64,000 bases of DNA from Candidatus Methylomirabilia bacterium (GTDB taxonomy: Bacteria; Methylomirabilota; Methylomirabilia; Rokubacteriales; CSP1-6), in the NCBI GenBank assembly GCA_041490825.1, contig JBGPTW010000002.1, positions 28,445 through 92,444 on the forward strand, given 5' to 3'. A program made the position numbers and the translations under genes. Below the pieces are notes generated by a model. The model was given only the letters and a program-made list of their open reading frames with translations. It had not been told where the DNA came from and ran no database searches. Below are positions 10,446 to 62,381 of the stretch, piece after piece; position 1 is the stretch's first letter; each line of letters begins with the position of its first letter.

Positions 10446-10886
10446 ATGAAGAGAATCCTTCACCCGACTGACTTCTCGGAGTGCGCGCAGAAAGCGCTGG
10501 AGGAGGCGACCGCGTTGATCCGCGCCTGCGGCGGGGAGCTGATCCTGCTCCACGTCTCCGTGGAAGCGCCGCTTTATAATGAAGCCATGTTCGGCCTCGC
10601 CAAGCCGCAAGCCGTCTACGAAGCGCAGCGAAAGTGGGCGGAAGCCGAGCTCGCCGAACGGGCGGCGAAGCTGACCGCAAGCGGTGTGGCCACCCGTAGC
10701 CTCGTGCGCTCCGGTGTGCCGTTCGAGGAGATCGTCGAGGTCGCGCAGAAAGAGGCGTGCGAACTGATCGTCATAGGCACCCACGGCTTCGGCGGCCTCA
10801 ACCGCTGGCTGCTCGGCAGCGTGGCCGATCGCGTCGTGCGGTTGGCGTCGTGCCCGGTGATGACGGTCAGGATGCCGGCCGCCTGA
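10446..10886 (+). CDS. Universal stress protein (UspA family, single domain)
   Basis: MKRILHPTDFSE...LILLHV...VIGTHGFGGLNRWLLGSVADRVVRLASCPVMTV: canonical Usp ATP-binding motif G-2x-G-9x-G(S/T); GGAGG SD. Confidence 0.85.
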   Translation: MKRILHPTDFSECAQKALEEATALIRACGGELILLHVSVEAPLYNEAMFGLAKPQAVYEAQRKWAEAELAERAAKLTASGVATRSLVRSGVPFEEIVEVAQKEACELIVIGTHGFGGLNRWLLGSVADRVVRLASCPVMTVRMPAA

Positions 10887-10905
10887 GATCACGACGATCG
10901 TTCCA

Positions 10906-11787
10906 ATGGCCATCGCCAAGTTCCCCATCGTCGTAGGCACGGACGGCTCCTCGACGGCCGGGGCTGCGCTCGCAACCATGCGGATGTTCCCCTGGCCGGA
11001 GGGCGCCAAGGTCCACGCTGTCGTGGCCCGGCGCACGCGCGCGACGGCGGGACGGCCTCGCTACGTCGTCATGGCCTTCGACCGGGCGTTTGCGAAGGCC
11101 GCGTCCGACGCGCGAGCGCTCCTCTCGCGGCGGTGGCCCGACGTCGGCGTCACCGTGCTCGACAAAAGGCCTGTCGAGGCACTCCTTGCCGAGGCCCGCC
11201 GGGTCGGGGCAAAAGCGATCGTCGTCGGCTGGCGCGGTCACGGTCCCATCGGCCGCTTGCTGCTCGGCAGCGTGTCGCGAGGCATCGTGCGGCACGCGAC
11301 GTGTCCCGTGCTCGTGGTGCGGCAACGGTCGAAGCAGGTCCGGCGGCTGTTGATCGGCATCGACGGATCAGACAACGCGCGTCGGGCCGTTGACCTTGTC
11401 ACGGCGTTTCCGCCGCCCGCCGGCGCGTCGGTCACGCTCGTGACTGCGCTCGAGCCGATCTCGCTGCCGTCGCGCGCACTGCTCCCGGCTCAGGTGCGCC
11501 ACAGAGTTGGCCAGGAGCTGATGGCGCTGAAGGCCGAGATGGCCAGCAACGCGAGGCGCGAGCTCGACAACGCTTCCGCGAGACTGCGCGACGCGGGCTG
11601 GCGAGTTCGCACGATCCTGTCGTCCGGCACGCCACTGGCCGTGCTCCTGACCGCGGTCCGGCAGACCCAGGCCGATGTCCTGGTGATTGGCGCTCGTGGC
11701 TCTACCGGGCTGCAGCGATTCGTCCTTGGCAGCGTCGCCGAAGGCGCGTTGAATCGCTGCGCGATCCCGGTGTTCCTCGTGCGCTGA
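10906..11787 (+). CDS. Universal stress protein with tandem Usp domains
   Basis: Two repeats each ending in ...VGWRGHGPIGRLLLGSVSRGIVRHATCPVLVV / ...IGARGSTGLQRFVLGSVAEGALNRCAIPVFLV. Confidence 0.85.
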   Translation: MAIAKFPIVVGTDGSSTAGAALATMRMFPWPEGAKVHAVVARRTRATAGRPRYVVMAFDRAFAKAASDARALLSRRWPDVGVTVLDKRPVEALLAEARRVGAKAIVVGWRGHGPIGRLLLGSVSRGIVRHATCPVLVVRQRSKQVRRLLIGIDGSDNARRAVDLVTAFPPPAGASVTLVTALEPISLPSRALLPAQVRHRVGQELMALKAEMASNARRELDNASARLRDAGWRVRTILSSGTPLAVLLTAVRQTQADVLVIGARGSTGLQRFVLGSVAEGALNRCAIPVFLVR

Positions 11788-12068
11788 GCCTCGGCGCCGC
11801 CGCGTCCCGCCTCTACCGCTCGAGCACCTGTTCCTGAGGCACCATGATGAGGCGCCCCCACCACTGCTCCGCATCGGCACAGGCGATATCCGGGGCGCTC
11901 CGGCTCTCGGTGGGGCCGGCACGCCACGATTGAGGCGGATGAGGGGCAGCCGATGGCGCCCAGGGTCTGGCCAAGCCCGCGAATTCTTCGGCGACGAGCT
12001 CGGCATCACCCATGCAGTAGTTCGACGTGTCGCTGAAGATGAGGCTCATGGCCTCGAAGGAGAGAACG

Positions 12069-12953
12069 ATGCGCGTGCTGCTGGCCACCGATGGATCCGA
12101 CGATGCGCGGACGGCGACCGAATGGCTGAGCGCGTTTCCCCTCGCGCCGTCGACGAAGGCGCTCGTCGTGACGGTGGCTCTACCGCCTCCGTCGGCGCTC
12201 GACATTCCCACCGTCCGGGAGTTCAAGCACGAGATGGCCGAAGCCGCTCGCGTCGTGGCCGAGAGCGCGCGCGTCGTCCTCGCGCGCCGATGGGATGCCG
12301 AGGCGGTCGTTCTCGAAGGCGATCCTCGCGAGACGATCGCCGCGACGGCGAACGCGTGGTCGGCCGACATCGTCGTGGTCGGCGCTCGAGGGCTCGGCAC
12401 CTTCAAGCGGTTTCTCCTCGGCAGTGTTTCGAGCGCCATCGCACGGCACGTGCATTGCCCCGTTCTCGTCGTGAAGGGCCGGCCGGCGTCGCTTCGTACC
12501 GCGCTCGTCGCCATCGACGGCTCGCCGGACTCGATGGCGGCAGCCCGGTTCCTGGCCGCGCTCCCACTCGAGCGAACACTGACGGTGCGATTGCTGACGG
12601 CCATCGAGGGTCCGCAGTACCCGAGCGCGATCCCCGGGATCCTGGCCAAGACGCTGCACGCGGCGCTGGACGAGCTGGTGCGGGAGCAGGCGGCCGACGC
12701 CGAGAAAATTCTCGCCCGGGTCGGATCGGATTTCGTCGGACCGGCCGCGGTGATTCGGCGTGACGTGGTCGTGGGTCCGGCGGCCGACGAGATCATCCAG
12801 GCCGCGGCGGACGCGGGCGTGGATCTCGTCGTGGTCGGTGCGCGCGGGCTCGGGCCCATCGGCAAGCTCCTGCTCGGCAGCGTGTCCGAGAAAGTGCTGC
12901 ATCACGTCGACTGCCCCGTGCTGATCGTGAAGGGGCGCGAAGGGATCCCGTGA
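12069..12953 (+). CDS. Universal stress protein with tandem Usp domains
   Basis: MRVLLATDGSDD...VVGARGLGTFKRFLLGSVSSAIARHVHCPVLVV and second repeat ...VVGARGLGPIGKLLLGSVSEKVLHHVDCPVLIV; AAGGAGAG SD 5 nt upstream of ATG. Confidence 0.85.
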   Translation: MRVLLATDGSDDARTATEWLSAFPLAPSTKALVVTVALPPPSALDIPTVREFKHEMAEAARVVAESARVVLARRWDAEAVVLEGDPRETIAATANAWSADIVVVGARGLGTFKRFLLGSVSSAIARHVHCPVLVVKGRPASLRTALVAIDGSPDSMAAARFLAALPLERTLTVRLLTAIEGPQYPSAIPGILAKTLHAALDELVREQAADAEKILARVGSDFVGPAAVIRRDVVVGPAADEIIQAAADAGVDLVVVGARGLGPIGKLLLGSVSEKVLHHVDCPVLIVKGREGIP

Positions 12954-12997
12954 AGTACACTGTTCGCCATTCCTGGCGCGGCTGAGAGAGGTGAGCC

Positions 12998-13114
12998 ATG
13001 GTCCACGCGATCCGTGATCAGTGGGTGATCGCGGTCGCGATCGTCGCGGTGCTGGCGATCGCCATCTGGCTGCTGGCGGACCAGTGGCTGACTCGCCGCC
13101 GAGGCGGCAGGTGA
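12998..13114 (+). CDS. Possible 38-aa single-TM peptide upstream of ftsH
   Basis: MVHAIRDQWVIAVAIVAVLAIAIWLLADQWLTRRRGGR; GAGAGAGGTGAG SD; hydrophobic core; below the ORF-track size cutoff. Confidence 0.3.
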   Translation: MVHAIRDQWVIAVAIVAVLAIAIWLLADQWLTRRRGGR

Positions 13115-13130
13115 CGACGCCGCGGTGACG

Positions 13131-14984
13131 ATGGAACCCAAGCAGCGGAGGTTCTCGATCGGCTACCTCGTGATCGCCCTGATCGCGATGGTCGTCCTGC
13201 AGTCGGTCCTGTTCGCCCCTCACGCGGAGACGCTGTCGTACAGCGAGTTCAAGACGCTCGTGAGGAAGGGCAAGGTCAGCAACCTCACGCTCGACAAGCA
13301 GACCATCAGCGGCTCGCTGGCCAGCGAGGGACTCGAGGGTCTCCTCCCGAAAGAGAAGCTCGATGAGCTGAAGCGCCTGGGGGCCGGAGCGCACCCGTTC
13401 GTCACGACGCGCGTCGACGATCCCGGGCTGGTGGCGGAACTCGAGCAGGCGAGCGTCAAGTTCACGGGACGGGTGGAGAACACGTGGCTCTCGGCCCTGC
13501 TCTCCTGGGTACTTCCCGCCGTGGTGTTCGTTGGCGTCTGGCTTCTCGTCATGCGGAGGTTCGGCCCGCAGCAAGGGCTCATGGCCATCGGCAAGAGCAA
13601 GGCGAAGGTCTACGTCGAACACGAGACGGGCGTGACGTTCAACGACGTCGCGGGCATCGACGAGGCGCGCGGCGAGCTGATGGAGGTCGTGGACTTTCTC
13701 AAGAACCCCGATCGCTACCGGCGCCTCGGCGGGAAGATCCCGAAGGGCGTGCTCATCGTGGGCGCGCCCGGCACCGGCAAGACGCTGCTGGCCAAGGCCG
13801 TCGCCGGCGAGGCCGGTGTCCCCTTCTTCAGCTTGAGCGGCGCCGACTTCGTGGAGATGTTCGTCGGCGTGGGCGCCGCGCGCGTGCGCGACCTCTTCGC
13901 CCAGGCCCAGGAAAGAGCTCCGAGCATCATCTTCATCGACGAGCTGGATGCCTTGGGGAAGGCGCGCGGCATCAGTCCGATCGTGGGCGGTCACGACGAG
14001 CGCGAGCAAACGCTGAATCAACTGCTCGCGGAGATGGACGGCTTCGACACCCGGAAGGGCGTCATGATCATGGCGGCGACCAACCGGCCGGAAATCCTCG
14101 ACCCCGCGCTGCTGCGGCCCGGCCGCTTCGATCGCCAGGTCGTGCTCGACCGGCCCGACCTCAACGGTCGGGAGAAAATTCTTCGCGTGCATGTCCGCGA
14201 CGTCAAGCTGGCCCCGGGCCTCGACCTAGGGCGGGTGGCGGCCCGGACCCCCGGCTTCGTCGGCGCCGATCTCGCCAACCTCGTCAACGAAGCAGCCCTC
14301 CACGCCGCCCGGCAGGAGAAGGACGCGGTCGACATGGCCGACTTCGACGAGGCCATCGATCGCGTGGTGGGTGGGCTCGAGCGCAAGTCGCGCGTGATCA
14401 ACCCGAAGGAAAAGGAGATCGTCGCCTACCACGAAGCGGGCCATGCGCTGGTCGCAGAATCGCGCGAGCACGCGGATCGCGTCGCGAAGATCTCCGTGAT
14501 TCCCAGGGGCGTGGCCGCGCTCGGGTACACGCAGCAGCAGCCGACCGAGGATCGGTACCTGATGACTCGCACCGAGCTCCTGGAGCGGCTCGACGTGTTG
14601 CTCGGTGGCCGGGTCGCGGAAGAGCTGATCTTCGGCGACATCTCGACGGGCGCGCAGGACGATCTCCAGCGCGCCACCGACATGGCGCGCCACATGGTCG
14701 CGCGCTACGGGATGAGCGAGGCGCTCGGCCTCGCGACGTTCGAGGCCCCACGCCAGGCGCTCTTCCTCAATGTTCCATCCCCGGCCCAGCGGGAGTACAG
14801 CGAGGAGACCGCGCGGCGCATCGACGCCGAGATCCAGATGCTCCTCGAGACGGCGCACGGGCGCGTTCGCGAGACGTTGACCGCCAAGCGTGAGGTGCTC
14901 ACGTCGCTCGCCAAGCTGCTCATCGAGAAAGAAGTCGTGAGCCGGGCCGACCTCACCGCGCTCCTGGCGTCCGCGAACCCCTGA
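13131..14984 (+). CDS. ftsH: ATP-dependent zinc metalloprotease FtsH
   Basis: N-terminal TM segments, AAA module [26 protein letters not shown] region, M41 zinc motif HEAGHALV; alternative GTG start at 13125. Confidence 0.95.
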
Positions 14985-15187: not shown

Positions 15188-15553
15188 ATGCTGCGTGACT
15201 TCTTCCTCGGCTTCATCAAGATCCACATCCTCTACCATGCTGCCGAGGAGCCGCTCTATGGCCTGGCCCTCATCGAGGAGCTGCGTCGGCACGGGTATGC
15301 GCTGAGCGCGGGCACGCTCTATCCCATCCTCCACAGCCTCGAAGCATCCGGGTATCTGCGCCACGAGGATCGCGTGGTCGGCGGGAAAGTGCGGAAGTAC
15401 TACACGATCACCGCCGAGGGACACCGGGCCTTGACCGCGGCGCGGGCGAAGATCGTCGAGCTCATGGATGAACTGCTCGGGGGCCGGAGACCGGCCGCCA
15501 CGAGGATCAGCAGGCGCAATGCGCGGCCGCACCGGGCTGCGCATTCTCGATGA
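15188..15553 (+). CDS. PadR-family transcriptional regulator
   Basis: FIKIHILYHAAEEPLYGLALIEELRRHGYALSAGTLYPILHSLEASGYL...KYYTITAEG: PadR winged-helix signature; ATGA overlap with chrA. Confidence 0.85.
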   Translation: MLRDFFLGFIKIHILYHAAEEPLYGLALIEELRRHGYALSAGTLYPILHSLEASGYLRHEDRVVGGKVRKYYTITAEGHRALTAARAKIVELMDELLGGRRPAATRISRRNARPHRAAHSR

Positions 15554-16707
15554 ACTCGCCGAGCTCCCCGCCTTCCGGATCGGTCCGCGAAGTTGCGGAG
15601 CTGTTCGCGAAGCTCGGCCTGATCGCGTTCGGTGGCCCGGCGGCGCACATCGCGCTCATGCGCGACGAGGTCGTCAAGCGCCGGCGCTGGGTGACCGATC
15701 AGGAATTCCTCGATCTGCTCGGCGCGAGCAACCTCATCCCCGGACCCACGTCGACCGAGCTCGCGATCTATCTTGGCTACGTGCGCGCCGGATGGCGGGG
15801 GCTCGTGCTCGCTGGCACGCTCTTCATCGCACCGGCGACGCTGAGCGTCCTTGCCATCGCGTGGGTATACGCACGCTATGGGTCAACGCCTGGAGCGGAG
15901 TGGCTTCTGTACGGCATCAAGCCGGTCGTCATCGGGATCGTGATCATCGCCTTGTGGGGACTCCTCCAGACGGCGGTGAAGGGCGTGCTCTTCGGCGTCG
16001 TCGGTGTCGCCGCGCTCTCCTTGTTCCTGCTCGGCGTCAACCCGATCGTGGTTCTCTTCGGTGGTGGTCTGGTGATGCTGCTGGCGCGGCGCGTGAAACG
16101 ACTCGGCGGAATCAGCCTCGTGGCGCTCGCCTTGTCAAGCGTCGCGACGGGTCCGGCGAGTGCGTCGACTCCTTATAGCCTTGGCCTGCTCGCACTGTAC
16201 TTCCTCAAGATCGGCGCCGTCGTGTATGGCAGCGGCTACGTTCTGCTCGCGTTCCTGCGTGCCGACTTCGTCGAGCGCCTCGGCTGGCTCACCGACCATC
16301 AGTTGATCGATGCCGTCGCCGTTGGTCAGTTCACTCCAGGCCCGGTGTTCACGACCGCCACGTTCATTGGTTACCTCGTCGGGGGTGTTCCCGGCGCGGT
16401 CGTGGCAACGGTGGCGATCTTCATCCCGTCGTTTCTGCTCGTGGCCGCGATCTCTCCGCTCGTGCCGCGACTGCGGCGCGCGGCGGCGACGAGCGCGATC
16501 CTGGACGGCGTGAACGTGGCGGCGCTCGGCTTGATGGCCGGCGTCACGTGGCAACTGGCGCGCGCCTCCGTCATCGACGGCGTCACCGCAGCCCTGGCGC
16601 TGCTTGCAACGCTCGCCCTCGGCCGTTTCAGAATCAATTCCGTCTGGCTGATCGTCGCCGGTGCCGTGATCGGAGTCGCGGTGCACCTCGTCGGCTGGAC
16701 GAAATGA
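15550..16707 (+). CDS. chrA: Chromate ion transporter ChrA (full-length, two CHR domains)
   Basis: FGGPAAHIALMRDEVVKRRRWVTDQEFLDLLGASNLIPGPTSTELAIYLGY in first half and repeated FTPGPVFTTATFIGY in second half; about 10 TM helices. Confidence 0.9.
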   Translation: MNSPSSPPSGSVREVAELFAKLGLIAFGGPAAHIALMRDEVVKRRRWVTDQEFLDLLGASNLIPGPTSTELAIYLGYVRAGWRGLVLAGTLFIAPATLSVLAIAWVYARYGSTPGAEWLLYGIKPVVIGIVIIALWGLLQTAVKGVLFGVVGVAALSLFLLGVNPIVVLFGGGLVMLLARRVKRLGGISLVALALSSVATGPASASTPYSLGLLALYFLKIGAVVYGSGYVLLAFLRADFVERLGWLTDHQLIDAVAVGQFTPGPVFTTATFIGYLVGGVPGAVVATVAIFIPSFLLVAAISPLVPRLRRAAATSAILDGVNVAALGLMAGVTWQLARASVIDGVTAALALLATLALGRFRINSVWLIVAGAVIGVAVHLVGWTK

Positions 16708-16825
16708 CGCCCCAGCTGGGGCCGCCTTGCCCCTACGCTCGGTGGTGACGGTCCTCGTTAACTCGCGTCGCAATTGACATTCCCAACCGCGGCGATTGGT
16801 ACACCGCGTGCACCTCTCGGACGGC

Positions 16826-17254
16826 ATGCGGAAATCGATCGGGATCGTGATCGGGATCCTGGCTGTGCTCGGCGCGATGGCGGCATGGGCCGAAGACGTG
16901 AAGGTCGAGGCGCCTCCGCCGACGCGCGAGCCGCGCATCATCGCTCCAGGATTGCTCTACGAGCGACGTCCGACCGACGAGAACTACTACCCGGGCGGTG
17001 GTCCGGTCGTCCCCGACGATCCCGCCTTCATCCGACCATTCACGATCGCCGTGGAGACGCCTGACTCGACGGGACGCATGGGCCTCTCGGGCTGGACGTT
17101 GCCGAACACACCCGTCGGCCCCTCCGGCGCTGGCCTTCGCGAGAGCAACGGCTGGCTCGGTTTCGGCTTCACGTGGACGTGGGGCGGACCACCGCCGGGC
17201 TTGCGACACATCGGCCCGGCCGACAATCAACCGGGACGACTCAACGCTCCGTAG
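16826..17254 (+). CDS. Secreted Pro/Gly-rich hypothetical protein
   Basis: Signal peptide MRKSIGIVIGILAVLGAMAAWA; no recognisable domain. Confidence 0.5.
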   Translation: MRKSIGIVIGILAVLGAMAAWAEDVKVEAPPPTREPRIIAPGLLYERRPTDENYYPGGGPVVPDDPAFIRPFTIAVETPDSTGRMGLSGWTLPNTPVGPSGAGLRESNGWLGFGFTWTWGGPPPGLRHIGPADNQPGRLNAP

Positions 17255-17304
17255 ATCGCCGGCGCGATCAGCGCTGCCGCCGCGGCAAGAACAAGGAGAC
17301 CGCA

Positions 17305-17979
17305 ATGACCCAGGTGATGAAGAAGACTGATACGCAGATCCATCATGACGTGCTTGAAGAGCTCAAATGGGACTCCCGCGTCGACGAGACGGAGGTCGGA
17401 GTCGAAGTCGACCGCGGCGTCGTCACCTTGACCGGCACAGTGACGAGCTGGGCCAAGCGCGGCGCCGCCGAGGAAGCGGCCCATCGCGTGATCGGCGTCC
17501 TCGACGTGGCGAACGACATCGTGGTGAAGCTGCCGGGCGGGTACAGCCAGAGCGATACGGAAATCGCGCAGGCCGTGCGCCGGGCTCTCGAGTGGGACGT
17601 GTTCGTCCCAGAGGAGAAGATCAGCTCCACCGTCTCCGACGGCTGGGTCACGCTCGAGGGGACCGTCGAGCGCTGGAGTCAGCGCGAGGACGCAGCGCGC
17701 GCGGTCCGCAATCTCATGGGCGTGAGAGGCGTGGTGAACAAGATCGCGGTCACGCCCGCCAAGCCGGTGACCGAGGACGTCCGGAAGGCCATCGAGCAGG
17801 TCCTGGAGCGGCGCGCCGAGCGTGAGGCGAAGCGGATCCGCGTCGATATCCGGGACGGCACGGTGACGCTGACCGGACCCGTCCATTCGTGGGCGGAGCG
17901 AAAATCGATGCTCGCGGCCGCGCGCTTCACCCCCGGCGTCCGGGCCGTCGAGGATCATCTGCGCGTGGAACCGGTGTGA
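17305..17979 (+). CDS. BON-domain protein (two BON domains, OsmY-like)
   Basis: Repeated ...DSRVDETEVGVEVDRGVVTLTGTVTS... and ...IRVDIRDGTVTLTGPVHSWAERK... BON signatures; AAGGAGA SD. Confidence 0.85.
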   Translation: MTQVMKKTDTQIHHDVLEELKWDSRVDETEVGVEVDRGVVTLTGTVTSWAKRGAAEEAAHRVIGVLDVANDIVVKLPGGYSQSDTEIAQAVRRALEWDVFVPEEKISSTVSDGWVTLEGTVERWSQREDAARAVRNLMGVRGVVNKIAVTPAKPVTEDVRKAIEQVLERRAEREAKRIRVDIRDGTVTLTGPVHSWAERKSMLAAARFTPGVRAVEDHLRVEPV

Positions 17980-17988
17980 GCCGAGATC

Positions 17989-54509: not shown

Positions 54510-55541
54510 TCAGCGCGCTCGGTGTCCCGCATAGCGGCGTGTGACGTTCGGGACGAGGTATTCGTTGAACGTGCGGTCGAGGTCATACCCTGGCCGGAAG
54601 TTCCAATCGCGACGGGCGCGCGTGTCGTCGACGTCCTCCGGCCACGAGTCCACGATAACTTGACGCCGAGCGTCGGGATTGAACGTGAGCTGCTCCGCCG
54701 GGAAGGCCTTGCGCACCATCGCGGCGATCTCGGCCGCGCTCACATTGAAGGCGGTCACGTTGTAGACCACGCTCGTCAGCGACTCCGCGGGTGCCTCGAG
54801 CAAGCCGAGCAGCGCCGCGATCGCGTCGGGCATCGCCATGAACGGAATGCGCGTGTCGTCGCGAACGAAACAGGCATAGGGACGACCCTGTGCTGCGGCG
54901 TGAATCATCTCCGGCGCGTAGTCGCTCGTCCCACCGCTTGGGACCGTGAAGGCGGAGATCAGTCCGGGGAACCGGATTGCGCGAAAGTCCACGCCGCTCG
55001 CTCCCTGCGCGGCGAGCTGACGGTAGTGGCGCGCGACATAGCGGCCGAGGTGCTCGCAGTAGAGCTTGTTGCAGCCGTACATCGTGATCGGCTGGAGCCA
55101 CTGCTCCTCGCTGAGCCGGCCCGCGCCGCGCTTCGTAGCGAGGTCGGGAAGACCGTAGACCGCGATCGAGCTGGGGAAGAGGAATTTCACCGGGCCGCCA
55201 TGCGAGCGGGCTTCCTCGACTGCCAGGTGGAGGAGGTTCAGCGTGCCTTGCACGTTGATCTCGTGCGCCGCCTCGGGGACGAACTCGGCTCGCGTCGAAA
55301 GGATCGCGGCCAGATGGAAGATGGCGGAGATCTCGAACTCGCTCATCAGCGCATCGAGCAGACGGCGATCGAGCACATCGCCAACGCGTGTTGCCGCGCA
55401 CTGCCGAGCGAGTTCAGGGTCGAGAGGCCGGACGTCGCACGCCAGGACATCGAACGAGCCGAGCTCGGCGAGGCGACGGATCAAACCGTGCCCCACCTCG
55501 CCGCCAGCGCCGGTCACGAGTACCGCGGGCTTGCGTGCCAC
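54510..55541 (-). CDS. tdh: L-threonine 3-dehydrogenase (SDR/epimerase-family type)
   Basis: [14 protein letters not shown] Rossmann motif, YGCNK catalytic Y-x3-K; 30 nt downstream of kbl stop; GTG start with GGAGAGGG SD. Confidence 0.85.
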
Positions 55542-55745
55542 GCCAATGTCCCTCTCCGAGAGTCTACGCTGTGCCTGATTCCAACGTCCTGGGGTAACGC
55601 CGGGACACCGATGGGGCAGCGTCGCAACGCTGCGGCAGCATAACCGTCCGAGATCCTTGATGCGCCTCGTGGCACCCCGGATGCACGTGTGCATGAGATC
55701 CAGATTCAGCCGGAGCGGAACGTCCAAGGACCCAGGAGATCAGTG

Positions 55746-56183
55746 ATGGCGAAACGATTCCTCGTTCCACTCGACACCAGTCCGGAAGCCGAACACCTGA
55801 TCCCGCTCGTCGCCGACGCGGCGCGCGCGACCGGTGCGACCGTGCGGCTGCTCCATGTCGCTCCGGTGCCCGGCAACGTCGTGAGTCCCGAGGGACGGAC
55901 CGTGGCGTATGCCGACCAGGAGATGACTCGGCTCGAGGCGGAATACACGAGCTACCTTCGCGGTCTGGAGGCCGAGCTCAGCGGCGTCGCCGTGGAGGCG
56001 GTGGTGAGGTTCGGCAAGCCGGCCGAGGAAATCCTGCAAGAGGCGGAGGCGTTCGGAGCCGACGTCATCGCGGTCACCACGACCTGCCGGAGCGCCGTGA
56101 AGCGAGCCCTGCTCGGGAGCGTTGCCGAGCAGCTCGTCAAGCAGGCGCGCCCGACGGTGATGCTGGTCCGGCCTGCCATGTGA
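55746..56183 (+). CDS. Universal stress protein (UspA family)
   Basis: MAKRFLVPLDTSPEAEHL...VRLLHV...IAVTTTCRSAVKRALLGSVAEQLVKQARPTVMLV; AGGAGA SD. Confidence 0.85.
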   Translation: MAKRFLVPLDTSPEAEHLIPLVADAARATGATVRLLHVAPVPGNVVSPEGRTVAYADQEMTRLEAEYTSYLRGLEAELSGVAVEAVVRFGKPAEEILQEAEAFGADVIAVTTTCRSAVKRALLGSVAEQLVKQARPTVMLVRPAM

Positions 56184-56427
56184 GTCGACCGGTGGCTCGG
56201 ACTGGATGATGCAGAACTGACCCGTGACGTCGAGCCCCGCGTGAGTCGGAAATACATTCCGTACGACAGCGGCTGCTCTACGCTTTGGCGCATTTGCCTC
56301 ACGAGTGGATCGGAATGCCGTGGCCCGGGCGCCCCATGTGGGGCCGGACGGCGCGCCTCACTCGGAACGCTCACACGCATTGTTCACGACTTCGGCTCCG
56401 GCGCGACTCTTGCTGCCCCAATACGCC

Positions 56428-57729
56428 ATGAGATTCCACGACCGTACCGACGCCGGCAAGAAGCTGGCGGACGCGCTCGTCCCGGTCATCAGGCCGCCCT
56501 GCGTCGTCGCCGGCATCCCGCGCGGCGGGGTCGCCATTGCGTTGCCCATCGTCGAGCGATTCGCTCTGCCGCTCACGGTCGTCTATGCGCGCAAGCTGAC
56601 CGCTCCGGTGGCCCCGGAGTTCGCATTTGGCGCGATCGACGAGGACGGTCACACGATCGTCGACTCGCGCTCCGTTGCAATGCTCGGACTCTCGTCGGCC
56701 GACGTGGACGAGGCGAAGGGGCGGGTGTCGAAGGAGATTCGACGTCGCATGACGACCTACGGCGTGCCCGCGCTCGGACACTACCTCCCCGACGCGGCTG
56801 TGGTCCTGGTGGACGATGGCCTCGCGACGGGGCTGACGATGCGGGTGGCGCTCGAGTACGCGCGCCGTCACGGGGCCCGCGAGATCATCGTCGCAGTCCC
56901 GTGCGCTTCCGAGCCCGCAGCGCGGGAATTCGAGCGCGCCGCGGACCACTTCGTCAGCCTGCTGGTGGACCCCGACTTCATGGCCGTCGGCCAGTACTAC
57001 ACAGATTTCGCGCCCGTGTCGGACGACGAGGTCATCGCGATGCTGAGCGGCGCGTTGGAACCAGGCGCCAGCGCTCCCCGCGCGGTCGACCGGAGCGACG
57101 CGCGCATTGTCTTCAAGAATTCGCGTGGTTTCACGCTGGCGGGTCGGCTCCTCGTGCCGTCGTCCTCCGGGCCTCACCCGGTGGTCGTCTTCGCGCACGG
57201 CTGGGGCAGCGGCAAGGACAGTCCGCGTAACACGGCGGTCGCCGAGGCGCTGCGGCGTCTCGGTTTCGCCGCGTTCCTGCTCGACTTCACCGGCCACGGC
57301 GAGAGTGAAGGGAAACCGGAGGATTCGACGCAAGAGCAACAGGTGGACGATCTCGCCGCCGCGCTCGGCGCGCTCGAAGGCCTTGACGAAATCGATGGCC
57401 GCCGGCTCGGCGTCGTCGGCGCGAGCTCCGGGGCTGCCGTGGCGGTCCTCGCCGCGGGACGTGACACGCGGATTCGCGCGCTGGTATTGCGATCTCCCAA
57501 CCTGACGGGTGTTGAAGGGGCGGTGTCGCGCGTGCGCGTGCCGGCGCTCCTCGTGGTCGGCGAGCACGACGCGCCGATTCGCGCTGCGCTCGCGCCCGTG
57601 GTCGGCCACTTCGGCGGTCCGCGCGCGCTCGAAGTCGTTCCGGGCGGCGACCATTTGTTCGAGGATCCCGCGGCGCTGGCATGCGCAACAGCGGCGACCG
57701 TCGCCTGGTTCAAAGACCACCTCAAATAG
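56428..57729 (+). CDS. Phosphoribosyltransferase (type I PRTase) fused to alpha/beta-hydrolase (dienelactone-hydrolase-like) domain
   Basis: PRTase PRPP-binding motif VVLVDDGLATGLTM; C-terminal hydrolase with VVFAHGWGSGKDS, nucleophile elbow GASSGAAVA, His (GGDHLF). Confidence 0.8.
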   Translation: MRFHDRTDAGKKLADALVPVIRPPCVVAGIPRGGVAIALPIVERFALPLTVVYARKLTAPVAPEFAFGAIDEDGHTIVDSRSVAMLGLSSADVDEAKGRVSKEIRRRMTTYGVPALGHYLPDAAVVLVDDGLATGLTMRVALEYARRHGAREIIVAVPCASEPAAREFERAADHFVSLLVDPDFMAVGQYYTDFAPVSDDEVIAMLSGALEPGASAPRAVDRSDARIVFKNSRGFTLAGRLLVPSSSGPHPVVVFAHGWGSGKDSPRNTAVAEALRRLGFAAFLLDFTGHGESEGKPEDSTQEQQVDDLAAALGALEGLDEIDGRRLGVVGASSGAAVAVLAAGRDTRIRALVLRSPNLTGVEGAVSRVRVPALLVVGEHDAPIRAALAPVVGHFGGPRALEVVPGGDHLFEDPAALACATAATVAWFKDHLK

Positions 57730-57959: not shown

Positions 57960-58889
57960 TCAAGATGCCGCCGCGCTCCCTGTCCTGGCGGCGCCGGCCG
58001 TGAATCGTGTGTCGAGCCATGCGGCGAGCAGCGGTACCGCGGAGACGATGACGATGCGAGGCGACGCCGCCCGAGCCGGAAGCGGCGTGGTGTCGGTGCA
58101 GTAGATCTGGCTCACGCCGAGCGACCAAAGGCGCTCCCACCGGGTTCCGGTGAAGAGGCCGTGCGTCGCTATGATGACGATCTCGCGCACGCCCGCGTTT
58201 CGAAGTGCCTCCGACGCCGAGATCAGCGTGCCTCCCGTGTCGAGGATGTCGTCGACGATGACAGCCACGGCGCCGGCGGCGCCGTGGAACGCCGAGTGGC
58301 TGACACCCGTTCCCGTTCGAGTCTTGGTGAACCAGGCGAGCGGTCGGTCGATGCCGGCGGCGTGACGCACGGCTTCGCATCGCGCGCGCGCGCCCTCGTC
58401 TGGCGCCACCACCGTCGGGTCCCGTAATCCCAGTGCGCGCAGCGTGTCGGCGAAGAGCTGGGCCGGTGACAGCGACGTCAGCGGAACGGGGACGAGCTGA
58501 TGGATCCTCGAGCTGTGGACGTCCACGGTGACGATCTCGTCGACCCCGGAAGCACGCAGAAGCTCGCCGAGCCACGCGGCGCCGAGACTCTTGCCGGGCT
58601 CGTCCCGGTCATGGCGCGCGTAGCCGAGGTAGGGCAACAGGGCCACCACACGGCTCGCGCCTGCCCGGTCGAGCGTGTGCGCGAGTAACAACGTCGCCAG
58701 TAAGTCCTCATCAGGCGGCGCAACCGCGCCAAGAAGCATGGCCTCATCGCCGGTGACCGGTGAGTCGACCGTGGCGTGCAGCTCTCCGTTCGAGAATCGG
58801 TCGATCGTGAAGCGGCCCGGCTTCACACCGGCGAGTCTCTCGAGCGTCGCGCCGAGGTGCGCGTGTCGAGGCAGGCTGAACAGCAGCAC
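57960..58889 (-). CDS. prs: Ribose-phosphate pyrophosphokinase (PRPP synthetase) family protein
   Basis: ...DRFSNGELHATV..., PRPP-binding VAVIVDDILDTGGTL; GTG start with GGTGAGGGA SD. Confidence 0.85.
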   Translation of the reverse strand: MLLFSLPRHAHLGATLERLAGVKPGRFTIDRFSNGELHATVDSPVTGDEAMLLGAVAPPDEDLLATLLLAHTLDRAGASRVVALLPYLGYARHDRDEPGKSLGAAWLGELLRASGVDEIVTVDVHSSRIHQLVPVPLTSLSPAQLFADTLRALGLRDPTVVAPDEGARARCEAVRHAAGIDRPLAWFTKTRTGTGVSHSAFHGAAGAVAVIVDDILDTGGTLISASEALRNAGVREIVIIATHGLFTGTRWERLWSLGVSQIYCTDTTPLPARAASPRIVIVSAVPLLAAWLDTRFTAGAARTGSAAAS

Positions 58890-58893
58890 GTGT

Positions 58894-59142
58894 TTATCCC
58901 TCACCGAAAGATCGGTATGGACAGGGGGTGCAACCTCGCTGCCACGACGTGGGCACCGCGGAGGACCTTCCAAGTGACAGGGAACAAGAGGAGGTCAGAG
59001 AGGTCGACTTCGCGGTTCTGCCGTCGGCGTCTGACCGCGACCCGCCTTGGCCCGGCTGGAAGTGTTCGCACGGACAATCAGGGACGCGGCACCTCCCGCC
59101 GAGCACGTGCTCCCTCTCGAGATGACCGCAGATGCAGTGCAT
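58894..59142 (-). CDS. Small Cys/His-rich putative metal-binding protein (82 aa)
   Basis: GGAAGGAGG SD 4 nt before ATG; MHCICGHLEREHVLGGRCRVPDCPCEHF...; immediately upstream of prs. Confidence 0.4.
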   Translation of the reverse strand: MHCICGHLEREHVLGGRCRVPDCPCEHFQPGQGGSRSDADGRTAKSTSLTSSCSLSLGRSSAVPTSWQRGCTPCPYRSFGEG

Positions 59143-59419: not shown

Positions 59420-60832
59420 CTAGTTTTCGATGAAGCTCCGGAGCGCCTTGGCGCTGACCGGCTGGCGCAGCTTGCTCAGTGCCCGGGTCTCGATCTGGCG
59501 GATCCGTTCGCGAGTGAGCGCGAAACGCGTTCCGATCTCTTCGAGTGTCTGGGGCTCGGTGTCACCGAAGCCGAAGCGGAGCCGCAGCACCCGCTGCTCC
59601 CTCTCCGTGAGGTTGGTCAGCGCGCGCGCGACGTGGAGCGAGAGGTCTTCTGCCAGAACTGGGTCGGTCGGCGCACCGGTAGAGCGGTCCTCGAGCACGT
59701 CGCTGAGCAGCAGGTTCTCACCGATCGGGGTCTCGAGCGACAGCGGCTTCGGCGCGGCGTTGAGGACCAGCCGGACCTTCTTGGCCGGCAGCCGGGTGCG
59801 CCGCGCGATCTCTTCCAGCGTGGGCTCCTTGCCAAGCTCGCTGGCCATCTGCCGGCTCGCTCGCGAAACGCGATTCAACGTCTCGACCATGTGGACCGGG
59901 ATCCGGATCGTCCGGCTGCGGTCGGCGATGGCGCGCGTGATCGACTGCCGGATCCACCATGTGGCGTACGTCGAGAACTTGAAGCCGCGACGGTACTGGA
60001 ACCGGTCGACCGCCTTCAAAAGTCCGAAGTTCCCGTCCTGGACCAGGTCGAGAAGCGGCACGCCGCTCGATCGGACGTAGCGCTTTGCGATGGAGACCAC
60101 CAATCGAAGGTTGGCTTCGATCATCTCGCGCTTGGCCTGGTTCACCGCGGCAGCGTTTTCATCGATCTCGGCCAGCAGCGCCTGGAGGCGCGGGCGGGAC
60201 ACGCCGACTTCTCGCTCGAGCGCCCGGAGCTCGCGCCGGGCGCCGGCCTGGGTCCGGTCGAGCCCGGCCATCCGATCCGACAGCCGGCGGACGCTCTCGA
60301 CGAAAGCGTCGACGAGGACGGGTTTAAGGGGCAGGTCGGCGACGAGCCTCTCGAGCCGAGCGCGATTCGCGGCGGTCGTCTTCGTCTGAGCCGTCCGGAG
60401 CCGCCGGATCTGAGCGAACGAGCGCTGGATCGGGGCGAGCGCTCGGGCATCCAGCTCTCCGCCTTCCGGCAGGACGATCACATTCTCCGCGGCCACTTCG
60501 CCGCGGCGGAGCCGCTCGCCGGTCTCGACGAGCCCTCGGAGGGCCATCGGGATGCGGGCGAGGGCACGGCGGAGGCCGATCTGACCGGCCTCGATACGCC
60601 GCCCGATTTCGACCTCCTGCTTGGCGGTCAGGAGCGGAACTTTCCCGATGTTGCCGAAGTAGAGGGCCACGAGATCCTCGCCGAGCTCAGCCGGCCGCCC
60701 TTCCTCGGCGAGGAGTGTGTCGCCGGCCTCCGGGTCGTAAGCCAGCGCGGCGCCGTCGTCGAGCAGCCCCGCTGGATCCCGTTCGATGCCGTGATCGATG
60801 TCGTCGTGAACCTCGGCGCTCTTGAATGTCAT
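59420..60832 (-). CDS. RNA polymerase sigma-70 family factor (RpoD-like, group 1/2)
   Basis: Region 2 ([43 protein letters not shown]), region 3, region 4.2 ([28 protein letters not shown]). Confidence 0.9.
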
Positions 60833-60945
60833 GTGTCCTGATTCCTGCTATTTAGATGCTCGAGCCCGGCGAATCGTTTCGGCAGGGCATGCCGGTTACG
60901 TCCATGGGCCGAGGCGCCACGGAGGCGTCGCCACGGAGGCGTCGA

Positions 60946-61176
60946 ATGAAGAAATCGCTCCTGCTCATGTTGCTACCGCTGACGTTTCTCCCCGGCTGCT
61001 TTGGCACCGCGTGGCCGCGCGGCACCTGGACCCGGGCGGCCACCGCCAGTGGGCAGCAGCTCCACGACCAGTACGAGTGCGAGCGGCAAGCAGCCCGGTA
61101 CCGGGCCGCCGGACTGTCACCCGAGACGGTCTACGCCGACTGCATGCGCGCCCGCGGCTACGAGCGTGTCAGGTGA
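60946..61176 (+). CDS. Small lipoprotein
   Basis: MKKSLLLMLLPLTFLPGC lipobox. Confidence 0.5.
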   Translation: MKKSLLLMLLPLTFLPGCFGTAWPRGTWTRAATASGQQLHDQYECERQAARYRAAGLSPETVYADCMRARGYERVR

Positions 61177-61260
61177 GCCGCTCGTATGCTCCCGGCCAGG
61201 AATCGCATCGCGACCCGTTCCTGCGGCCGGCCCCGGGTCCGCCCTTCTCGACGCGCGCGT

Positions 61261-61482
61261 CTATGCGCTCACGAGCTGCACCTCGGCACCCGTGCCGAGA
61301 TGCTCCTTGAGGTGCGCGACGATGCGCTGGAGCTGCTGCTCATCGGTCTGTTGCATGTAGCTCCAGATCTGCTGGCAGTCCGGGCATGACTTCGCGTCAC
61401 GATGGAACGTTCCGTATCGATGCAGTCCCTTGGACAGCACTGCCGCCGTCTCCATGAGGTCATACGTGCTGTTATTGAGCAT
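61261..61482 (-). CDS. Small hypothetical protein (73 aa)
   Basis: GGGGAGAG SD 6 nt upstream of ATG; MLNNSTYDLMETAAVLSKGLHRYGTFHRDAKSCPDCQQIW...; no domain recognised. Confidence 0.4.
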   Translation of the reverse strand: MLNNSTYDLMETAAVLSKGLHRYGTFHRDAKSCPDCQQIWSYMQQTDEQQLQRIVAHLKEHLGTGAEVQLVSA

Positions 61483-61904
61483 CGCGTTCTCTCCCCTCGA
61501 GACCGTGTGGCTCGAGTCTCATGTGAGTAAAACGTGCTGATATCTCGGCTCAGGCAGAGCGCCGTGAGCGTAGCCAAGGATGTGGATGAGCGCTGCAACG
61601 ATGCTGCCACGGCAACTTGCGCCCGAGGAACATCGCTAAGTATCCACCGATCGCGAGCCTGCCTTCACCGGACAGTGGCCGCTCGTTTGCGGTCACCGGA
61701 GAGGTCGTGGGGAGCGGCCGACTCACCTGGGGTGAGCGAGGGACAACCAAGCGACGACCACCGGAGAGAGCCCGGAGCGTAAGCACCATCAAGGCATCAA
61801 AATGTCTGGGGCCTTTCCTGGCACCTCCGATGCACCTTCCCGCAAGAATTCCAGGAGGTCCACTTCACGTGAGTGGCGGCCTACCGGAACTCGAGGGAAG
61901 GACG

Positions 61905-62381
61905 ATGACCACCGTGCGCCGGATTCTCCACGCGACCGACTTTTCCCAGGCCTCACGCCCCGCTTTCGCCAGGGCGCTCGAGTGGGCGAAGCGCGGTCGC
62001 GCTGCGCTCCTGCTCGTCCACGTCCTGCCCCCGGTGAGGCCGGTCCTCGAAGACAGCTACATCCCGGCCACGATGTACCGGGACGTGGAGGCGGCGGCTG
62101 ACCGCCGTGCCGAGCACGAGCTCGGCGCGCTGGCCGCACGAGCGAGAAAGGCGGGGATCCGCGCTTCGGTCATGGTCCTCCACGGCGCGCCGTTCGAGCA
62201 GATCGTCCGCGCGGCGCAGCGACAGCGCGCGGGGCTCGTCGTGATCGGCACCCACGGGCGCACCGGGCTCTCACGCTTCGTCATGGGCAGCGTCGCCGAG
62301 CGAGTGGTCACGCAGGCCGGATGCCCGGTTCTCACCGTCCCCGCGAACGCGTCATCACGAACGGTGAAAGCCGGACGATGA
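61905..62381 (+). CDS. Universal stress protein (UspA family)
   Basis: RRILHATDFSQASRPAF...LLLVHV...VVIGTHGRTGLSRFVMGSVAERVVTQAGCPVLTV; GGGAAGGA SD. Confidence 0.85.
   Translation: MTTVRRILHATDFSQASRPAFARALEWAKRGRAALLLVHVLPPVRPVLEDSYIPATMYRDVEAAADRRAEHELGALAARARKAGIRASVMVLHGAPFEQIVRAAQRQRAGLVVIGTHGRTGLSRFVMGSVAERVVTQAGCPVLTVPANASSRTVKAGR

Follow-up and report, generated by a model that had tools for sequence, protein, structure and literature searches.

A 52-kb stress-gene block in a Rokubacteria genome: a probable sigma-54 regulon cluster for survival without growth

Several bacterial regulons for dormancy or survival without oxygen have been described, and the gene block reported here resembles them. 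The members of the DosR regulon of Mycobacterium tuberculosis have been listed (PMC5309233). The lxa locus of Burkholderia cenocepacia is a contiguous, co-regulated set of about 50 genes that includes six Usp genes, BON-type 'phospholipid-binding' proteins, a class II ribonucleotide reductase (RNR), a cation ATPase, cytochromes, and acetate and fatty-acid metabolism; it is required for anoxic survival, and its authors noted the overlap with DosR (PMC3721108). In Myxococcus xanthus, the NmpRSTU-NmpR system is a sensor-kinase relay leading to an NtrC-like activator that works with sigma-54. It is induced by hypoxia, it controls CBS, Usp, and P-type ATPase genes, and its promoters have multiple pairs of enhancer half-sites within about 100 bp (PMC11841059). 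A 2025 survey predicted enrichment of Usp and CBS genes in planctomycete sigma-54 regulons (PMC12316311). The locus compared with these systems lies in a stretch of 64,000 nucleotides, called the window below, from contig JBGPTW010000002.1 of a Candidatus Methylomirabilia bacterium (GCA_041490825.1). A dense block of about 50 genes for stress, repair, and hibernation occupies roughly 10.2-62.4 kb of the window (52 kb). The evidence suggests, with a probability of about 0.6, that the block is one conserved chromosomal cluster of Rokubacteria/Methylomirabilota, a regulon for survival without growth that is controlled by sigma-54 and an enhancer-binding protein.

The block shares gene families with the DosR regulon but differs from it in layout and wiring. 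Pfam and NCBIfam scans find all eight DosR-regulon families that the first-pass annotation, made from the sequence alone, had named. The likeness is at family level only, and it covers Usp (tandem type, Rv2623), CBS-pair proteins (Rv2626c, hrp1), an HPF-type protein (Rv0079), RtcB (Rv2631), class II RNR (NrdZ, Rv0570), a PGA_cap protein (Rv0574c), a phosphoribosyltransferase (PRTase)-type protein (Rv0571c), and P-type ATPases (Rv1997/CtpF) (PMC5309233). The structures of Rv2623 and Rv2626c are among the PDB matches, but they are not the best ones. Each system has about 50 genes, and the two-component control found in DosR is predicted here as well. The present genes form one 52-kb block, while those of M. 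tuberculosis are scattered over nine blocks. Sigma-54 promoters with a distant enhancer replace the DosR box, which is absent, and the predicted regulator is of the NtrC and not the NarL family. Genes for alpha-crystallin and nitroreductase are missing from the window, as are narK2/narX and tgs, while a protein-isoaspartyl methyltransferase (PCMT) with S-adenosylmethionine (SAM) synthetase, archease/RtcA, GroEL, FtsH, DksA-like proteins, Acs/E1/E2, and a sigma factor of its own are added. Domain scans of the window detected neither a NarL/LuxR-family regulator nor the GAF-domain heme kinases that would go with it.

The closest physical analogue is lxa, and the closest mechanistic analogue is NmpRSTU-NmpR. 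The promoters of lxa carry an Anr/FNR-like TGA-N6-TCA motif, whereas here the FNR box is not enriched and the promoters are of the sigma-54 type. In addition, lxa is restricted to certain strains, while the present cluster is widespread in its phylum. The NmpR operator is GCGCA-N5-TGCGC, as opposed to CGCCCCA-N2-TGGGGCG here, and the NmpR regulon is small and scattered (7 promoters, 23 genes) and has no repair and hibernation genes. Its sensor is a protoglobin kinase, while the candidate sensor here is a kinase with several transmembrane segments and a PAS domain. OsdR of Streptomyces coelicolor also controls a Usp-rich dormancy and stress regulon that overlaps with DevR and is under two-component control (PMC5069765), but the regulator is of the DevR/NarL type, with DevR-like boxes and sigma-70-type promoters. 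Taken with DosR, OsdR, lxa, and NmpR, the present cluster suggests the repertoire rather than the regulator as the conserved unit. Overall the block appears to be a large contiguous counterpart of the known dormancy regulons that is driven by sigma-54 and an enhancer, with a previously undescribed operator. The DosR-regulon repertoire would then recur in a distant phylum as one physical block.

Strict sigma-54 promoters are strongly overrepresented in the block and lie where promoters should be. Since raw lists of open reading frames (ORFs) are mostly noise at 68% G+C, genes were called from third-position GC (GC3), and the called proteins were annotated by Pfam and NCBIfam scans. L-numbers (L001 and so on) label the related loci and contigs used for comparison. 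The strict pattern GGCAY-N5-WTGCW corresponds to the consensus of sigma-54 promoters at -24/-12, including the GG-N10-GC spacing by which they are recognized. It has nine exact matches in the window compared with 0.53 expected (17-fold), and none of 100 shuffles reaches nine. All nine are intergenic (p about 2e-9; 11% of the DNA is non-coding), and all nine face a Shine-Dalgarno sequence and a start codon on the same strand 29-110 nt downstream; therefore the true starts can be fixed at 10446, 12069, 52045, 55746, and 61905. A relaxed pattern has 14 of its 26 matches in the 11% non-coding DNA (p 1e-7). There are no strict sites in 43 kb of housekeeping loci of Rokubacteria or in window 1-9.6 kb, nine in window 9.6-62.4 kb, and seven in L047; the clusters have 1.7-3.4 per 10 kb. 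Weaker variants of the -24 element were revealed by comparison of orthologous promoters, and further promoters have GGCCC, GGCGC, or GGTAC with TTGCT or GTGCA. The nine strict and about six weaker sites give 15 candidate promoters (PWM, position weight matrix score):

10266-10280, minus: exact sigma-54 element GGCATTCGAGTTGCT, facing a frameshifted remnant ORF (about 9797-10233)
10402-10416, plus: exact promoter TGGCACCGGGGTTGCT of Usp1 and the first tandem Usp; Shine-Dalgarno sequence and ATG 10446, 30 nt downstream; an identical core sits upstream of a CBS gene in L076
12002-12016, plus: exact promoter CGGCATCACCCATGCA of a tandem Usp, a small transmembrane ORF, and FtsH; ATG 12069
16798-16812, plus: weak, tentative sigma-54-like element GGTACACCGCGTGCA before the BON operon (GGTAC, doubtful); the leader would be very short
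27095-27109, plus: exact promoter TGGCATCCGCGATGCA of PCMT and SAM synthetase, probably continuing through the third CBS gene; top PWM score, 28.0
29213-29227, plus: probable internal promoter GGCAAAGCTGATGCA (GGCAA) of DksA1, archease, and RtcB; PWM 16.4; GGGGCG half-sites lie upstream in 29114-29174
36920-36934, minus: element GGCCCTCATCTTGCT of CBS4 and the Aas-like gene; GGCCC-N5-TTGCT variant, which is also kept upstream of PRTase-hydrolase orthologs
37076-37090, plus: exact promoter CGGCATCCCAGATGCA of a 12-gene string
52075-52089, minus: exact promoter TGGCACCGGCGATGCA of DUF2267, possibly also of CBS-BON and NrdJ; ATG 52045
52411-52425, plus: exact promoter CGGCACACTCGATGCA of a 141-aa transmembrane ORF and GYD; one exact half-site CGCCCCA at -62
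55671-55685, plus: exact promoter TGGCACCCCGGATGCA of Usp5
56400-56414, plus: element GGCGCGACTCTTGCT of the PRTase-hydrolase fusion, from a phylogenetic footprint
58929-58943, minus: TGGCAG-N5-TTGCA element before the Prs paralog; PWM 12.0; no palindrome upstream
61594-61608, minus: TGGCAG-N5-TTGCA element before a 73-aa ORF; PWM 11.6
61820-61834, plus: exact promoter TGGCACCTCCGATGCA of Usp6

A candidate for the ATPase operon at 26668-26682 (minus) was dropped; it sits in the ATPase frame in DNA with coding-type GC3. There is no alternative sigma-54 element between 26880 and 27000.

Most of these promoters share an upstream palindrome that may be the enhancer, or upstream activating sequence, of a single bacterial enhancer-binding protein (bEBP). 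The 16-bp palindrome CGCCCCA-N2-TGGGGCG has eight copies in the window with up to two mismatches, and all eight are intergenic; when a spacing of 1-2 is allowed at the same mismatch limit, nine of ten matches are intergenic (p 2e-8). It is found 50-120 nt upstream in 10 of the 15 candidate promoters but in only 3.7% of random 220-nt windows. Three copies, at 10323, 37008, and 61719, are each common to one divergent promoter pair. The copies with a promoter to serve are:

10323-10338: CGTCCCACCTGGGGCG, one mismatch, 50 and 71 nt from the GG of 10280 (minus) and 10402 (plus)
11922-11937: CGCCACGATTGAGGCG, two mismatches, 72 nt upstream of the -24 GG at 12002
16708-16723: CGCCCCAGCTGGGGCC, one mismatch, 82 nt upstream of the 16798 element
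26995-27009: CTCCCCACTGGGGCG, spacing 1, 92 nt upstream of the -24 GG at 27095
37008-37023: CGCCCCACGTGAGGCG, perfect (no mismatches), 81 and 60 nt from the GG of 36934 (minus) and 37076 (plus)
56330-56345: CGCCCCATGTGGGGCC, upstream of the PRTase-hydrolase element at 56400
61719-61734: CGACTCACCTGGGGTG, two mismatches, common to 61608 (minus) and 61820 (plus)

The half-sites are also concentrated upstream of strict promoters in related genomes. In 465 kb of related DNA they are enriched 10.7-fold at -160 to -30 of 64 strict sites (58 compared with 5.4 expected), with a peak at -60 to -95 and two in the downstream control. The short word CACCTGGGG was tried as a shared motif and rejected, as it is not enriched across the window (17 compared with 14.7 expected); to be informative, the motif must be the complete palindrome at its fixed spacing.

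The signals agree with the first-pass view of a single regulon but not with its mycobacterial wiring. That annotation had nominated seven intergenic regions for a search for a shared operator. All seven contain a promoter element and six contain the palindrome, so a shared motif does exist, but it consists of the sigma-54 promoter and the palindrome and not of the DosR box. The DosR box GGGAC-N4-GTCCC is under-represented (30 matches with up to two mismatches compared with 66 expected), and none of its matches is in a relevant promoter. The FNR/Anr box TTGAT-N4-ATCAA (TGA-N6-TCA) is not enriched (9 matches with up to two mismatches compared with 5.8 expected), and nearly all of its matches are inside genes. 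Similarly, the NmpR operator has 14 matches compared with 13.5 expected, all in coding DNA. One alternative is that the block is a DosR/NarL- or FNR/Anr-type hypoxia regulon, as in mycobacteria, Streptomyces, and Burkholderia, and that the sigma-54-like words are coincidental. The overlap in gene families with the DosR regulon and the lxa locus speaks for it (PMC5309233, PMC3721108). However, neither the FNR box nor the NmpR operator is enriched, the DosR box is depleted, and the sigma-54 pattern is far above expectation, exclusively intergenic, correctly oriented, and phylogenetically conserved, which makes this alternative extremely unlikely. Since the shared element is a sigma-54 promoter with an enhancer-type palindrome, the regulator is predicted to belong to the NtrC family and not to the NarL family.

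The best candidate for the activator is an NtrC-family response regulator with REC, sigma-54 AAA+, and Fis-type HTH domains, which would be encoded outside the window. As the first-pass annotation stated, the window has no response regulator: domain scans and searches for GAFTGA and Walker A signatures found neither a REC domain nor a bEBP, and the signatures were also absent from L001-L011. Its suggestion that the regulator gene lies elsewhere is supported by the relatives. L073 encodes a response regulator with REC, sigma-54 AAA+, and HTH_8 domains next to a histidine kinase, and it also carries BON, HPF, Usp, and PRTase genes and a perfect palindrome. In all six relatives examined (L073, L075, L076, L077, L078, and L079) an NtrC-type bEBP is found beside or within about 8 kb of an equivalent cluster of Usp, CBS, HPF, BON, DUF2267, or Acs-E1-E2 genes. 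A histidine kinase gene adjoins it in five of the six, and the four complete kinases have PAS domains. The regulator is preceded by a kinase with several N-terminal membrane helices, PAS, and HisKA in L076-L079, while L075 has no adjacent kinase. In L075 the regulator is followed by Usp, and FNT, ACP-E2-E1beta-E1alpha-Acs, and a divergent Aas-like gene are nearby; the order of minus-strand promoter, palindrome, and plus-strand promoter is the same as at window 36934/37008/37076. The pair in L077 has CBS, Usp, baeRF, CBS, Usp, HPF, and CBS on one side and Usp-Usp-LplA-Usp on the other. In L079 it is surrounded by BON, HPF, DUF308, CBS, DUF2267, ATPase, Usp, and epimerase genes, and the contexts in L076 and L078 are similar. 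Rokubacteria/NC10 encode many activators that have a sigma-54 interaction domain. The bEBP homologs are 75-93% identical, and their NCBI labels include sigma-54-dependent regulators of Rokubacteria, NC10, and Methylomirabilota, which indirectly indicates sigma-54 machinery in the phylum.

These findings suggest a model in which most of the roughly 50 genes are transcribed in about a dozen units that start at sigma-54 (RpoN) -24/-12 promoters. The partner kinase, with its several transmembrane segments and PAS domain, would sense a signal and phosphorylate the NtrC-type activator. The phosphorylated activator would bind the CGCCCCA/TGGGGCG palindromes and remodel closed sigma-54 holoenzyme complexes, turning on about a dozen units together. 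The output would include nucleotide and energy sensing (Usp, CBS), ribosome hibernation (HPF-like protein), protein repair and quality control (PCMT with its own SAM synthetase, GroEL, FtsH), and RNA repair (RtcB, archease, RtcA). In addition it may provide oxygen-independent dNTP supply (NrdJ and Prs), envelope and ion homeostasis (BON proteins and P-type ATPases), and acetate and 2-oxoacid metabolism. Soil and groundwater contain abundant Rokubacteria; these bacteria have large genomes, and to our knowledge none has been cultured. For these organisms the analysis offers a testable model: it defines a promoter class and an operator, proposes a kinase/activator pair, and lists genes for survival without growth. 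With the operator and promoter model, regulons in metagenome-assembled genomes (MAGs) of Rokubacteria can already be annotated and metatranscriptomes interpreted. The predicted joint regulation of Rtc RNA repair, PCMT/SAM synthetase, and ribosome hibernation may help to explain how cells remain dormant for long periods.

Several observations weigh against a single sigma-54 regulon. Promoter scans gave no sigma-54 signal for the ATPases, PadR-ChrA, the epimerase-aminotransferase pair, the sigma gene, or the lipoprotein. Five candidate promoters (52089 minus, 52411 plus, 55671 plus, 58943 minus, and 29213 plus) have no good palindrome. Conversely, no promoter could be assigned to two palindromes, one (33591-33606) flanked by the ends of convergent genes and the other (46261-46276) in a 61-nt gap directly before rtcA, where there is no room for a promoter. 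With the elements at 16798 and 56400, which almost adjoin the start codon, the transcripts would have hardly any leader. Neither rpoN nor the activator gene is in the window, so both RpoN and the activator are predicted components. The bEBP family is very conserved and has generic NtrC/HydG labels, and its link to the palindrome is drawn from genomic neighborhood. Some of the metagenome contigs are near-duplicates and inflate the pooled statistics, so the p-value for half-sites is optimistic. Finally, the kinase has no recognizable heme- or oxygen-sensing feature; PDB comparison gave only generic kinase-core matches.

Some of these points would fit a sigma-54-rich island that is not a single regulon. 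Several enhancer-binding proteins, perhaps together with the cluster sigma factor, would then respond to different stresses, and the genes would be co-localized because of shared physiology. The palindrome is missing at five of the 15 promoters, several units have no sigma-54 signal, and the block has regulatory genes of its own, for an RpoD paralog and a PadR regulator. Other inverted repeats are found just upstream of two palindrome-less promoters, GCAACGC-N12-GCGTTGC at 52411 plus (window 52380-52410) and GCAGCGT-CGCA-ACGCTGC, that is GCAGCGT-N4-ACGCTGC, at 55671 plus (window 55620-55645). A second regulator may bind at these repeats. On the other hand, the other ten promoters share the same palindrome, some of the remaining ones have degenerate half-sites, the half-site enrichment is strong across the pooled strict sites, and a single activator family accompanies the equivalent clusters in every one of the six relatives. 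A set of separately controlled units is therefore considered unlikely, and control by one activator remains the preferred reading.

The same gene families and promoter signals recur in other Rokubacteria. Searches anchored on three different proteins found contigs in which the families cluster again in shuffled order, so the co-localization is beyond chance, as had been claimed, and the genes are not scattered in related genomes. L010 and L006 have PRTase-hydrolase, DksA-like, archease, RtcB, YbaK, CBS, GYD, CBS, DksA, GroEL, and Acs genes. L007 has RtcA, SAM synthetase, YbaK, CBS, GYD, CBS, PRTase-hydrolase, and Usp; L002 has epimerase, aminotransferase, Prs, CBS, PRTase-hydrolase, and sigma; L011 has PCMT/SAM synthetase, ATPase, PRTase-hydrolase, and CBS; and L047 has HPF, GroEL, CBS, BON, Usp, CBS, PCMT, Usp, and ATPase. 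Shuffled order with conserved membership is a signature of selection for co-localization or co-regulation.

The -24/-12 element and the palindrome are kept at orthologous promoters while the flanking sequences vary. The PRTase-hydrolase promoter (GGCCC/GGCGC-N5-TTGCT) is conserved in nine loci or genomes. Its footprint YGGC[CG]C-N5-TTGCT is found in L001, L003, L004, L005, L006, L009, L010, and L011, and eight orthologous loci have perfect or near-perfect palindromes at the same position as 56330. The promoter of the archease-RtcB string is conserved in six loci. The DksA-archease-RtcB strings in L003-L010 begin with a strict sigma-54 site and an upstream activating sequence, and a CGCCTCA-G-TGGGGCG-N4-6-CGCCCCA block is kept at about -80 of the promoters of archease-RtcB orthologs; some orthologous promoters have half-sites in tandem. 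Strict sites are found 70-100 nt upstream of BON orthologs in L041, L042, L043, L047, L053, and L072, and at GYD orthologs in L052 and L053.

This recurrence also bears on the suggestion that the block was acquired recently as a mobile genomic island, or that unrelated stress genes came to lie together by chance. In favor of this suggestion, a lower-GC defense-type island (0.1-9.6 kb) is next to the block, and gene order varies between genomes. However, neither an integrase gene nor a tRNA nor flanking repeats are found with the block, and its G+C content is uniform (0.66-0.71). The same genes and cis-elements are present in many contigs of Rokubacteria, with protein identities of 60-85%, a pattern that vertical inheritance with rearrangement would produce. 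The closest relatives of the PRTase-hydrolase (65-81% identity) are found only in MAGs of Candidatus Rokubacteria/Methylomirabilota, and the BON protein has relatives at 60-85% identity in soil and groundwater metagenomes. An island or a chance assembly is thus hardly credible.

A more restricted proposal is that sigma-54 control in the block exists for RNA repair. The rtcBA genes of enterobacteria (E. coli, Salmonella) depend on sigma-54 and RtcR, and in both cases rtcB and rtcA are downstream of sigma-54 promoters. The block could then be an Rtc-type RNA-damage response under an RtcR-like (CARF) activator, with the other genes as mere neighbors; RtcB, archease, and RtcA are all present behind sigma-54 promoters. 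In contrast to the enterobacterial system, there is no adjacent CARF-domain RtcR, and the Rtc genes are within larger units with PCMT, DksA-like, CBS, GroEL, and metabolic genes. No bEBP signature adjoins rtcB in the window or in L005-L010, the activator associated with the clusters has a REC receiver domain and not CARF, and the palindrome also serves Usp, BON, PRTase-hydrolase, and GroEL promoters that have no Rtc genes. This proposal is very improbable, and a regulon that includes RNA repair among other functions is favored over it.

The sigma-54 wiring may extend beyond this phylum. In a deltaproteobacterial MAG (L025 13013-14268) and in a Binatia MAG (L030 3750-5013), a DksA-like gene and the CBS gene after it have a strict sigma-54 site immediately before them, and these genes adjoin PRTase/Usp genes. 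This suggests that DksA-like and CBS genes under sigma-54 are a cross-phylum module. A broader reading is that the block belongs to a phylum-wide sigma-54 "dormancy" regulon that was assembled independently and is functionally convergent with mycobacterial DosRST. A membrane and PAS kinase and an NtrC-type activator would act on the previously undescribed CGCCCCA-N2-TGGGGCG enhancer at no fewer than 13 promoters in one 52-kb block, with a private RpoD paralog as a second tier and a Usp/CBS/DksA-like core under sigma-54 extending to Deltaproteobacteria and Binatia. This reading is tentative, and its chances are slightly below even.

The gene content of the block covers sensing, repair, hibernation, and metabolism. 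The genes identified are (plus or minus, strand):

10446-10886, plus: Usp1, single domain (Pfam PF00582, E 5e-36)
10906-11787, plus: tandem-domain Usp (PF00582, E 6e-47, two stretches)
12069-12953, plus: tandem Usp (two Pfam Usp domains)
12998-13114, plus: 38-aa transmembrane ORF between the tandem Usp and FtsH, an unannotated membrane peptide (translation)
13125-14984, plus: FtsH paralog (Peptidase_M41, AAA, FtsH_ext)
15188-16707, plus: PadR regulator and ChrA chromate-transporter pair (Pfam)
16826-18711, plus: unit whose first gene encodes a secreted 142-aa protein (signal peptide read from the translation)
17305-17979, plus: triple-BON protein (Pfam)
17989-18351, plus: short S30AE/HPF-like protein (weak match, 31.9 bits)
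18388-18711, plus: cytochrome c (Pfam)
18893-21220, 21217-23844, and 23811-26879, minus: three P-type ATPases (Pfam/NCBIfam)
27216-29113, plus: PCMT and archaeal-type SAM synthetase with overlapping stop and start (PF01135, 7.6e-67; PF01941, 5.4e-128)
29253-29588, plus: DksA/TraR-like protein, DksA1 (Pfam)
29253-33414, plus: unit with archease between DksA1 and RtcB (Pfam)
30033-31508, plus: RtcB (Pfam)
31532-31741, plus: unannotated 70-aa Cys-rich (zinc-ribbon-like) ORF after RtcB (translation)
31752-32237, 32231-32818, and 32896-33414, plus: three CBS-pair proteins (Pfam, hidden Markov model (HMM) check)
33622-36399, minus: ACP-FAAL-acyltransferase, Aas-like (Pfam; NCBIfam fatty acyl-AMP ligase)
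36447-36878, minus: CBS-pair protein, CBS4 (Pfam)
37151-48456, plus: 12-gene string, tightly packed or overlapping (Pfam, gene spacing)
37151-37561, plus: second DksA/TraR protein (Pfam)
37574-39193, plus: GroEL with no GroES (TIGR02348, 742 bits)
39209-39661, plus: Usp (Pfam)
47305-48456, plus: CapA-like/PGA_cap protein (Pfam)
48425-50536, minus: class II B12 ribonucleotide reductase NrdJ/Z (TIGR02504 NrdJ_Z, 650 bits, cut-off 400)
50671-51417, minus: CBS+BON fusion protein (Pfam)
51644-52045, minus: DUF2267 (Pfam)
52474-52899, plus: 141-aa transmembrane ORF (translation)
52931-53284, plus: GYD (Pfam)
53293-55541, minus: NAD-dependent epimerase and class I/II aminotransferase (Pfam)
55746-56183, plus: Usp5 (Pfam)
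56428-57729, plus: PRTase and alpha/beta-hydrolase fusion (Pfam/PDB domains)
57960-58904, minus: ribose-phosphate diphosphokinase (Prs) paralog (TIGR01251, 207 bits)
59420-60832, minus: sigma-70-family sigma factor, 470 aa (Pfam regions 1.2, 2, 3, and 4)
60946-61176, divergent from the sigma gene: unannotated 76-aa lipoprotein with lipobox (translation)
61261-61482, minus: 73-aa protein with no assigned function (translation)
61905-62381, plus: Usp6 (Pfam)

This inventory agrees with most of the first-pass annotation. Local HMM searches of all six frames of the window found six Usp genes and five CBS-pair proteins and no more. The count of six Usp genes was correct, but only two of them and not three are tandem; a 254-aa ORF at 61617 has one Usp domain, and a promoter lies inside it. 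At least seven CBS-pair proteins had been claimed, which is too many. The BON, HPF (by its weak match), RtcB, FtsH, DksA/TraR, DUF2267, and GYD proteins are present as described, as are the PRTase-hydrolase fusion and the class II RNR with its CapA-like neighbor, whose genes are convergent. GroEL has no GroES, since the gene preceding it encodes a DksA/TraR protein. All three ATPases are P-type, but the P2-type N- and C-terminal domains are found in two of them and not in the 775-aa one. The earlier list was essentially right, but it did not include the sigma factor, PadR-ChrA, PCMT, archaeal-type SAM synthetase, archease, RtcA, FNT, Acs, E1alpha/E1beta/E2 and ACP, YbaK, the Aas-like protein, the Prs paralog, or cytochrome c.

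Several genes are arranged in functional strings. The 12-gene string encodes DksA/TraR, GroEL, Usp, an FNT channel, an Acs-like ligase, E1alpha, E1beta, E2, ACP, YbaK, RtcA, and the CapA-like protein. DksA/TraR zinc-finger paralogs head both this GroEL string and the archease-RtcB string. The archaeal-type SAM synthetase gene overlaps the PCMT stop codon; therefore the repair enzyme is paired with its own cofactor supply, and the PCMT/SAM synthetase pair recurs in L011 and L007. The largest ATPase (23811-26879, minus) has an N-terminal extension of about 150 residues ahead of Cation_ATPase_N, with coding-type GC3 and no domain match. The 5' end of nrdJ is ambiguous, as a start at 50536 gives 703 aa and one at 50218 gives 597 aa, and an 88-aa ORF with high GC3 (50238-50504) is in another frame of this region. 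Clusters of the relatives (L047 590-1735 and 8616-9728; L077 5070-6221) also encode eRF1-like baeRF proteins and an M50 protease with a CBS domain (Rv2625c type), which are further DosR-regulon-like families that are not in the window.

Hypoxia or anaerobiosis as the trigger is suggested by analogy and gene content. Since the kinase has no oxygen- or heme-sensing feature, this part of the reading is an analogy. The regulon could be real and have another trigger, such as general starvation, desiccation, energy depletion, or macromolecular damage in a slow-growing soil bacterium, and the likeness to DosR would then reflect a common toolkit for non-growth. The kinase consists of a membrane domain and a generic PAS domain, and PCMT, RtcB/RtcA/archease, GroEL, FtsH, and HPF have no direct link to oxygen. 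Pfam scans of the window found no genes for nitrate or fumarate respiration, hydrogenase, or high-affinity oxidase. However, the class II oxygen-independent RNR, FNT, Acs/2-oxoacid dehydrogenase, and cytochrome c fit low-oxygen metabolism, and the clusters of the relatives adjoin genes for cytochrome c, molybdopterin oxidoreductase, and PFOR. The DosR, lxa, NmpR, and OsdR systems all respond to low oxygen (PMC5309233, PMC3721108, PMC11841059, PMC5069765). A trigger other than low oxygen is rather unlikely, and survival at low oxygen or low energy is the output favored here.

The cluster sigma factor is probably a second regulatory tier. It scores below the RpoD equivalog cut-offs of NCBIfam, and it is 55-61% identical to a sigma factor of about 500 aa that is found in a conserved neighborhood of ribosomal-protein genes (S2/EF-Ts/S9/L13). 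Its identification as the housekeeping RpoD was rejected, as the homologs of about 500 aa hold that neighborhood. Homologs of the cluster sigma factor adjoin the PRTase-hydrolase in L002 and L008, and a sigma gene with 98% identity (P0121) indicates that the species also occurs in a JGI metagenome. From its sequence it appears to be a group-2-like RpoD paralog, and it may serve the units with no sigma-54 signal, such as the ATPases, PadR-ChrA, and the epimerase-aminotransferase pair.

The boundaries of the block are marked by a different kind of DNA on the left side. Rfam and tRNA scans of the window were empty; neither a B12 riboswitch for nrdJ nor an island boundary at a tRNA is therefore present. 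The metagenome collection had no match to an exact 60-mer taken from the right end of the window, and an exact search of the contig index for the window's GroEL was likewise negative. On the left is a separate island that marks the boundary of the stress cluster:

101-9605: defense-type island of lower GC (0.62-0.66) (Pfam)

The island encodes a HEPN_Swt1 and DUF499 protein of 1111 aa, a RelA/SpoT-domain fragment, and an NA37-like protein, as well as an AAA ATPase with a subtilase (S8) after it; sigma-54 sites are absent there. Between the island and Usp1 is the remnant ORF (9650-10262, minus), which is frameshifted, with its N- and C-terminal parts in different frames and no Pfam match. It is still behind the exact sigma-54 promoter at 10280-10266, which uses the Usp1 palindrome as well, and it is either a decaying member of the regulon or the result of a sequencing error.

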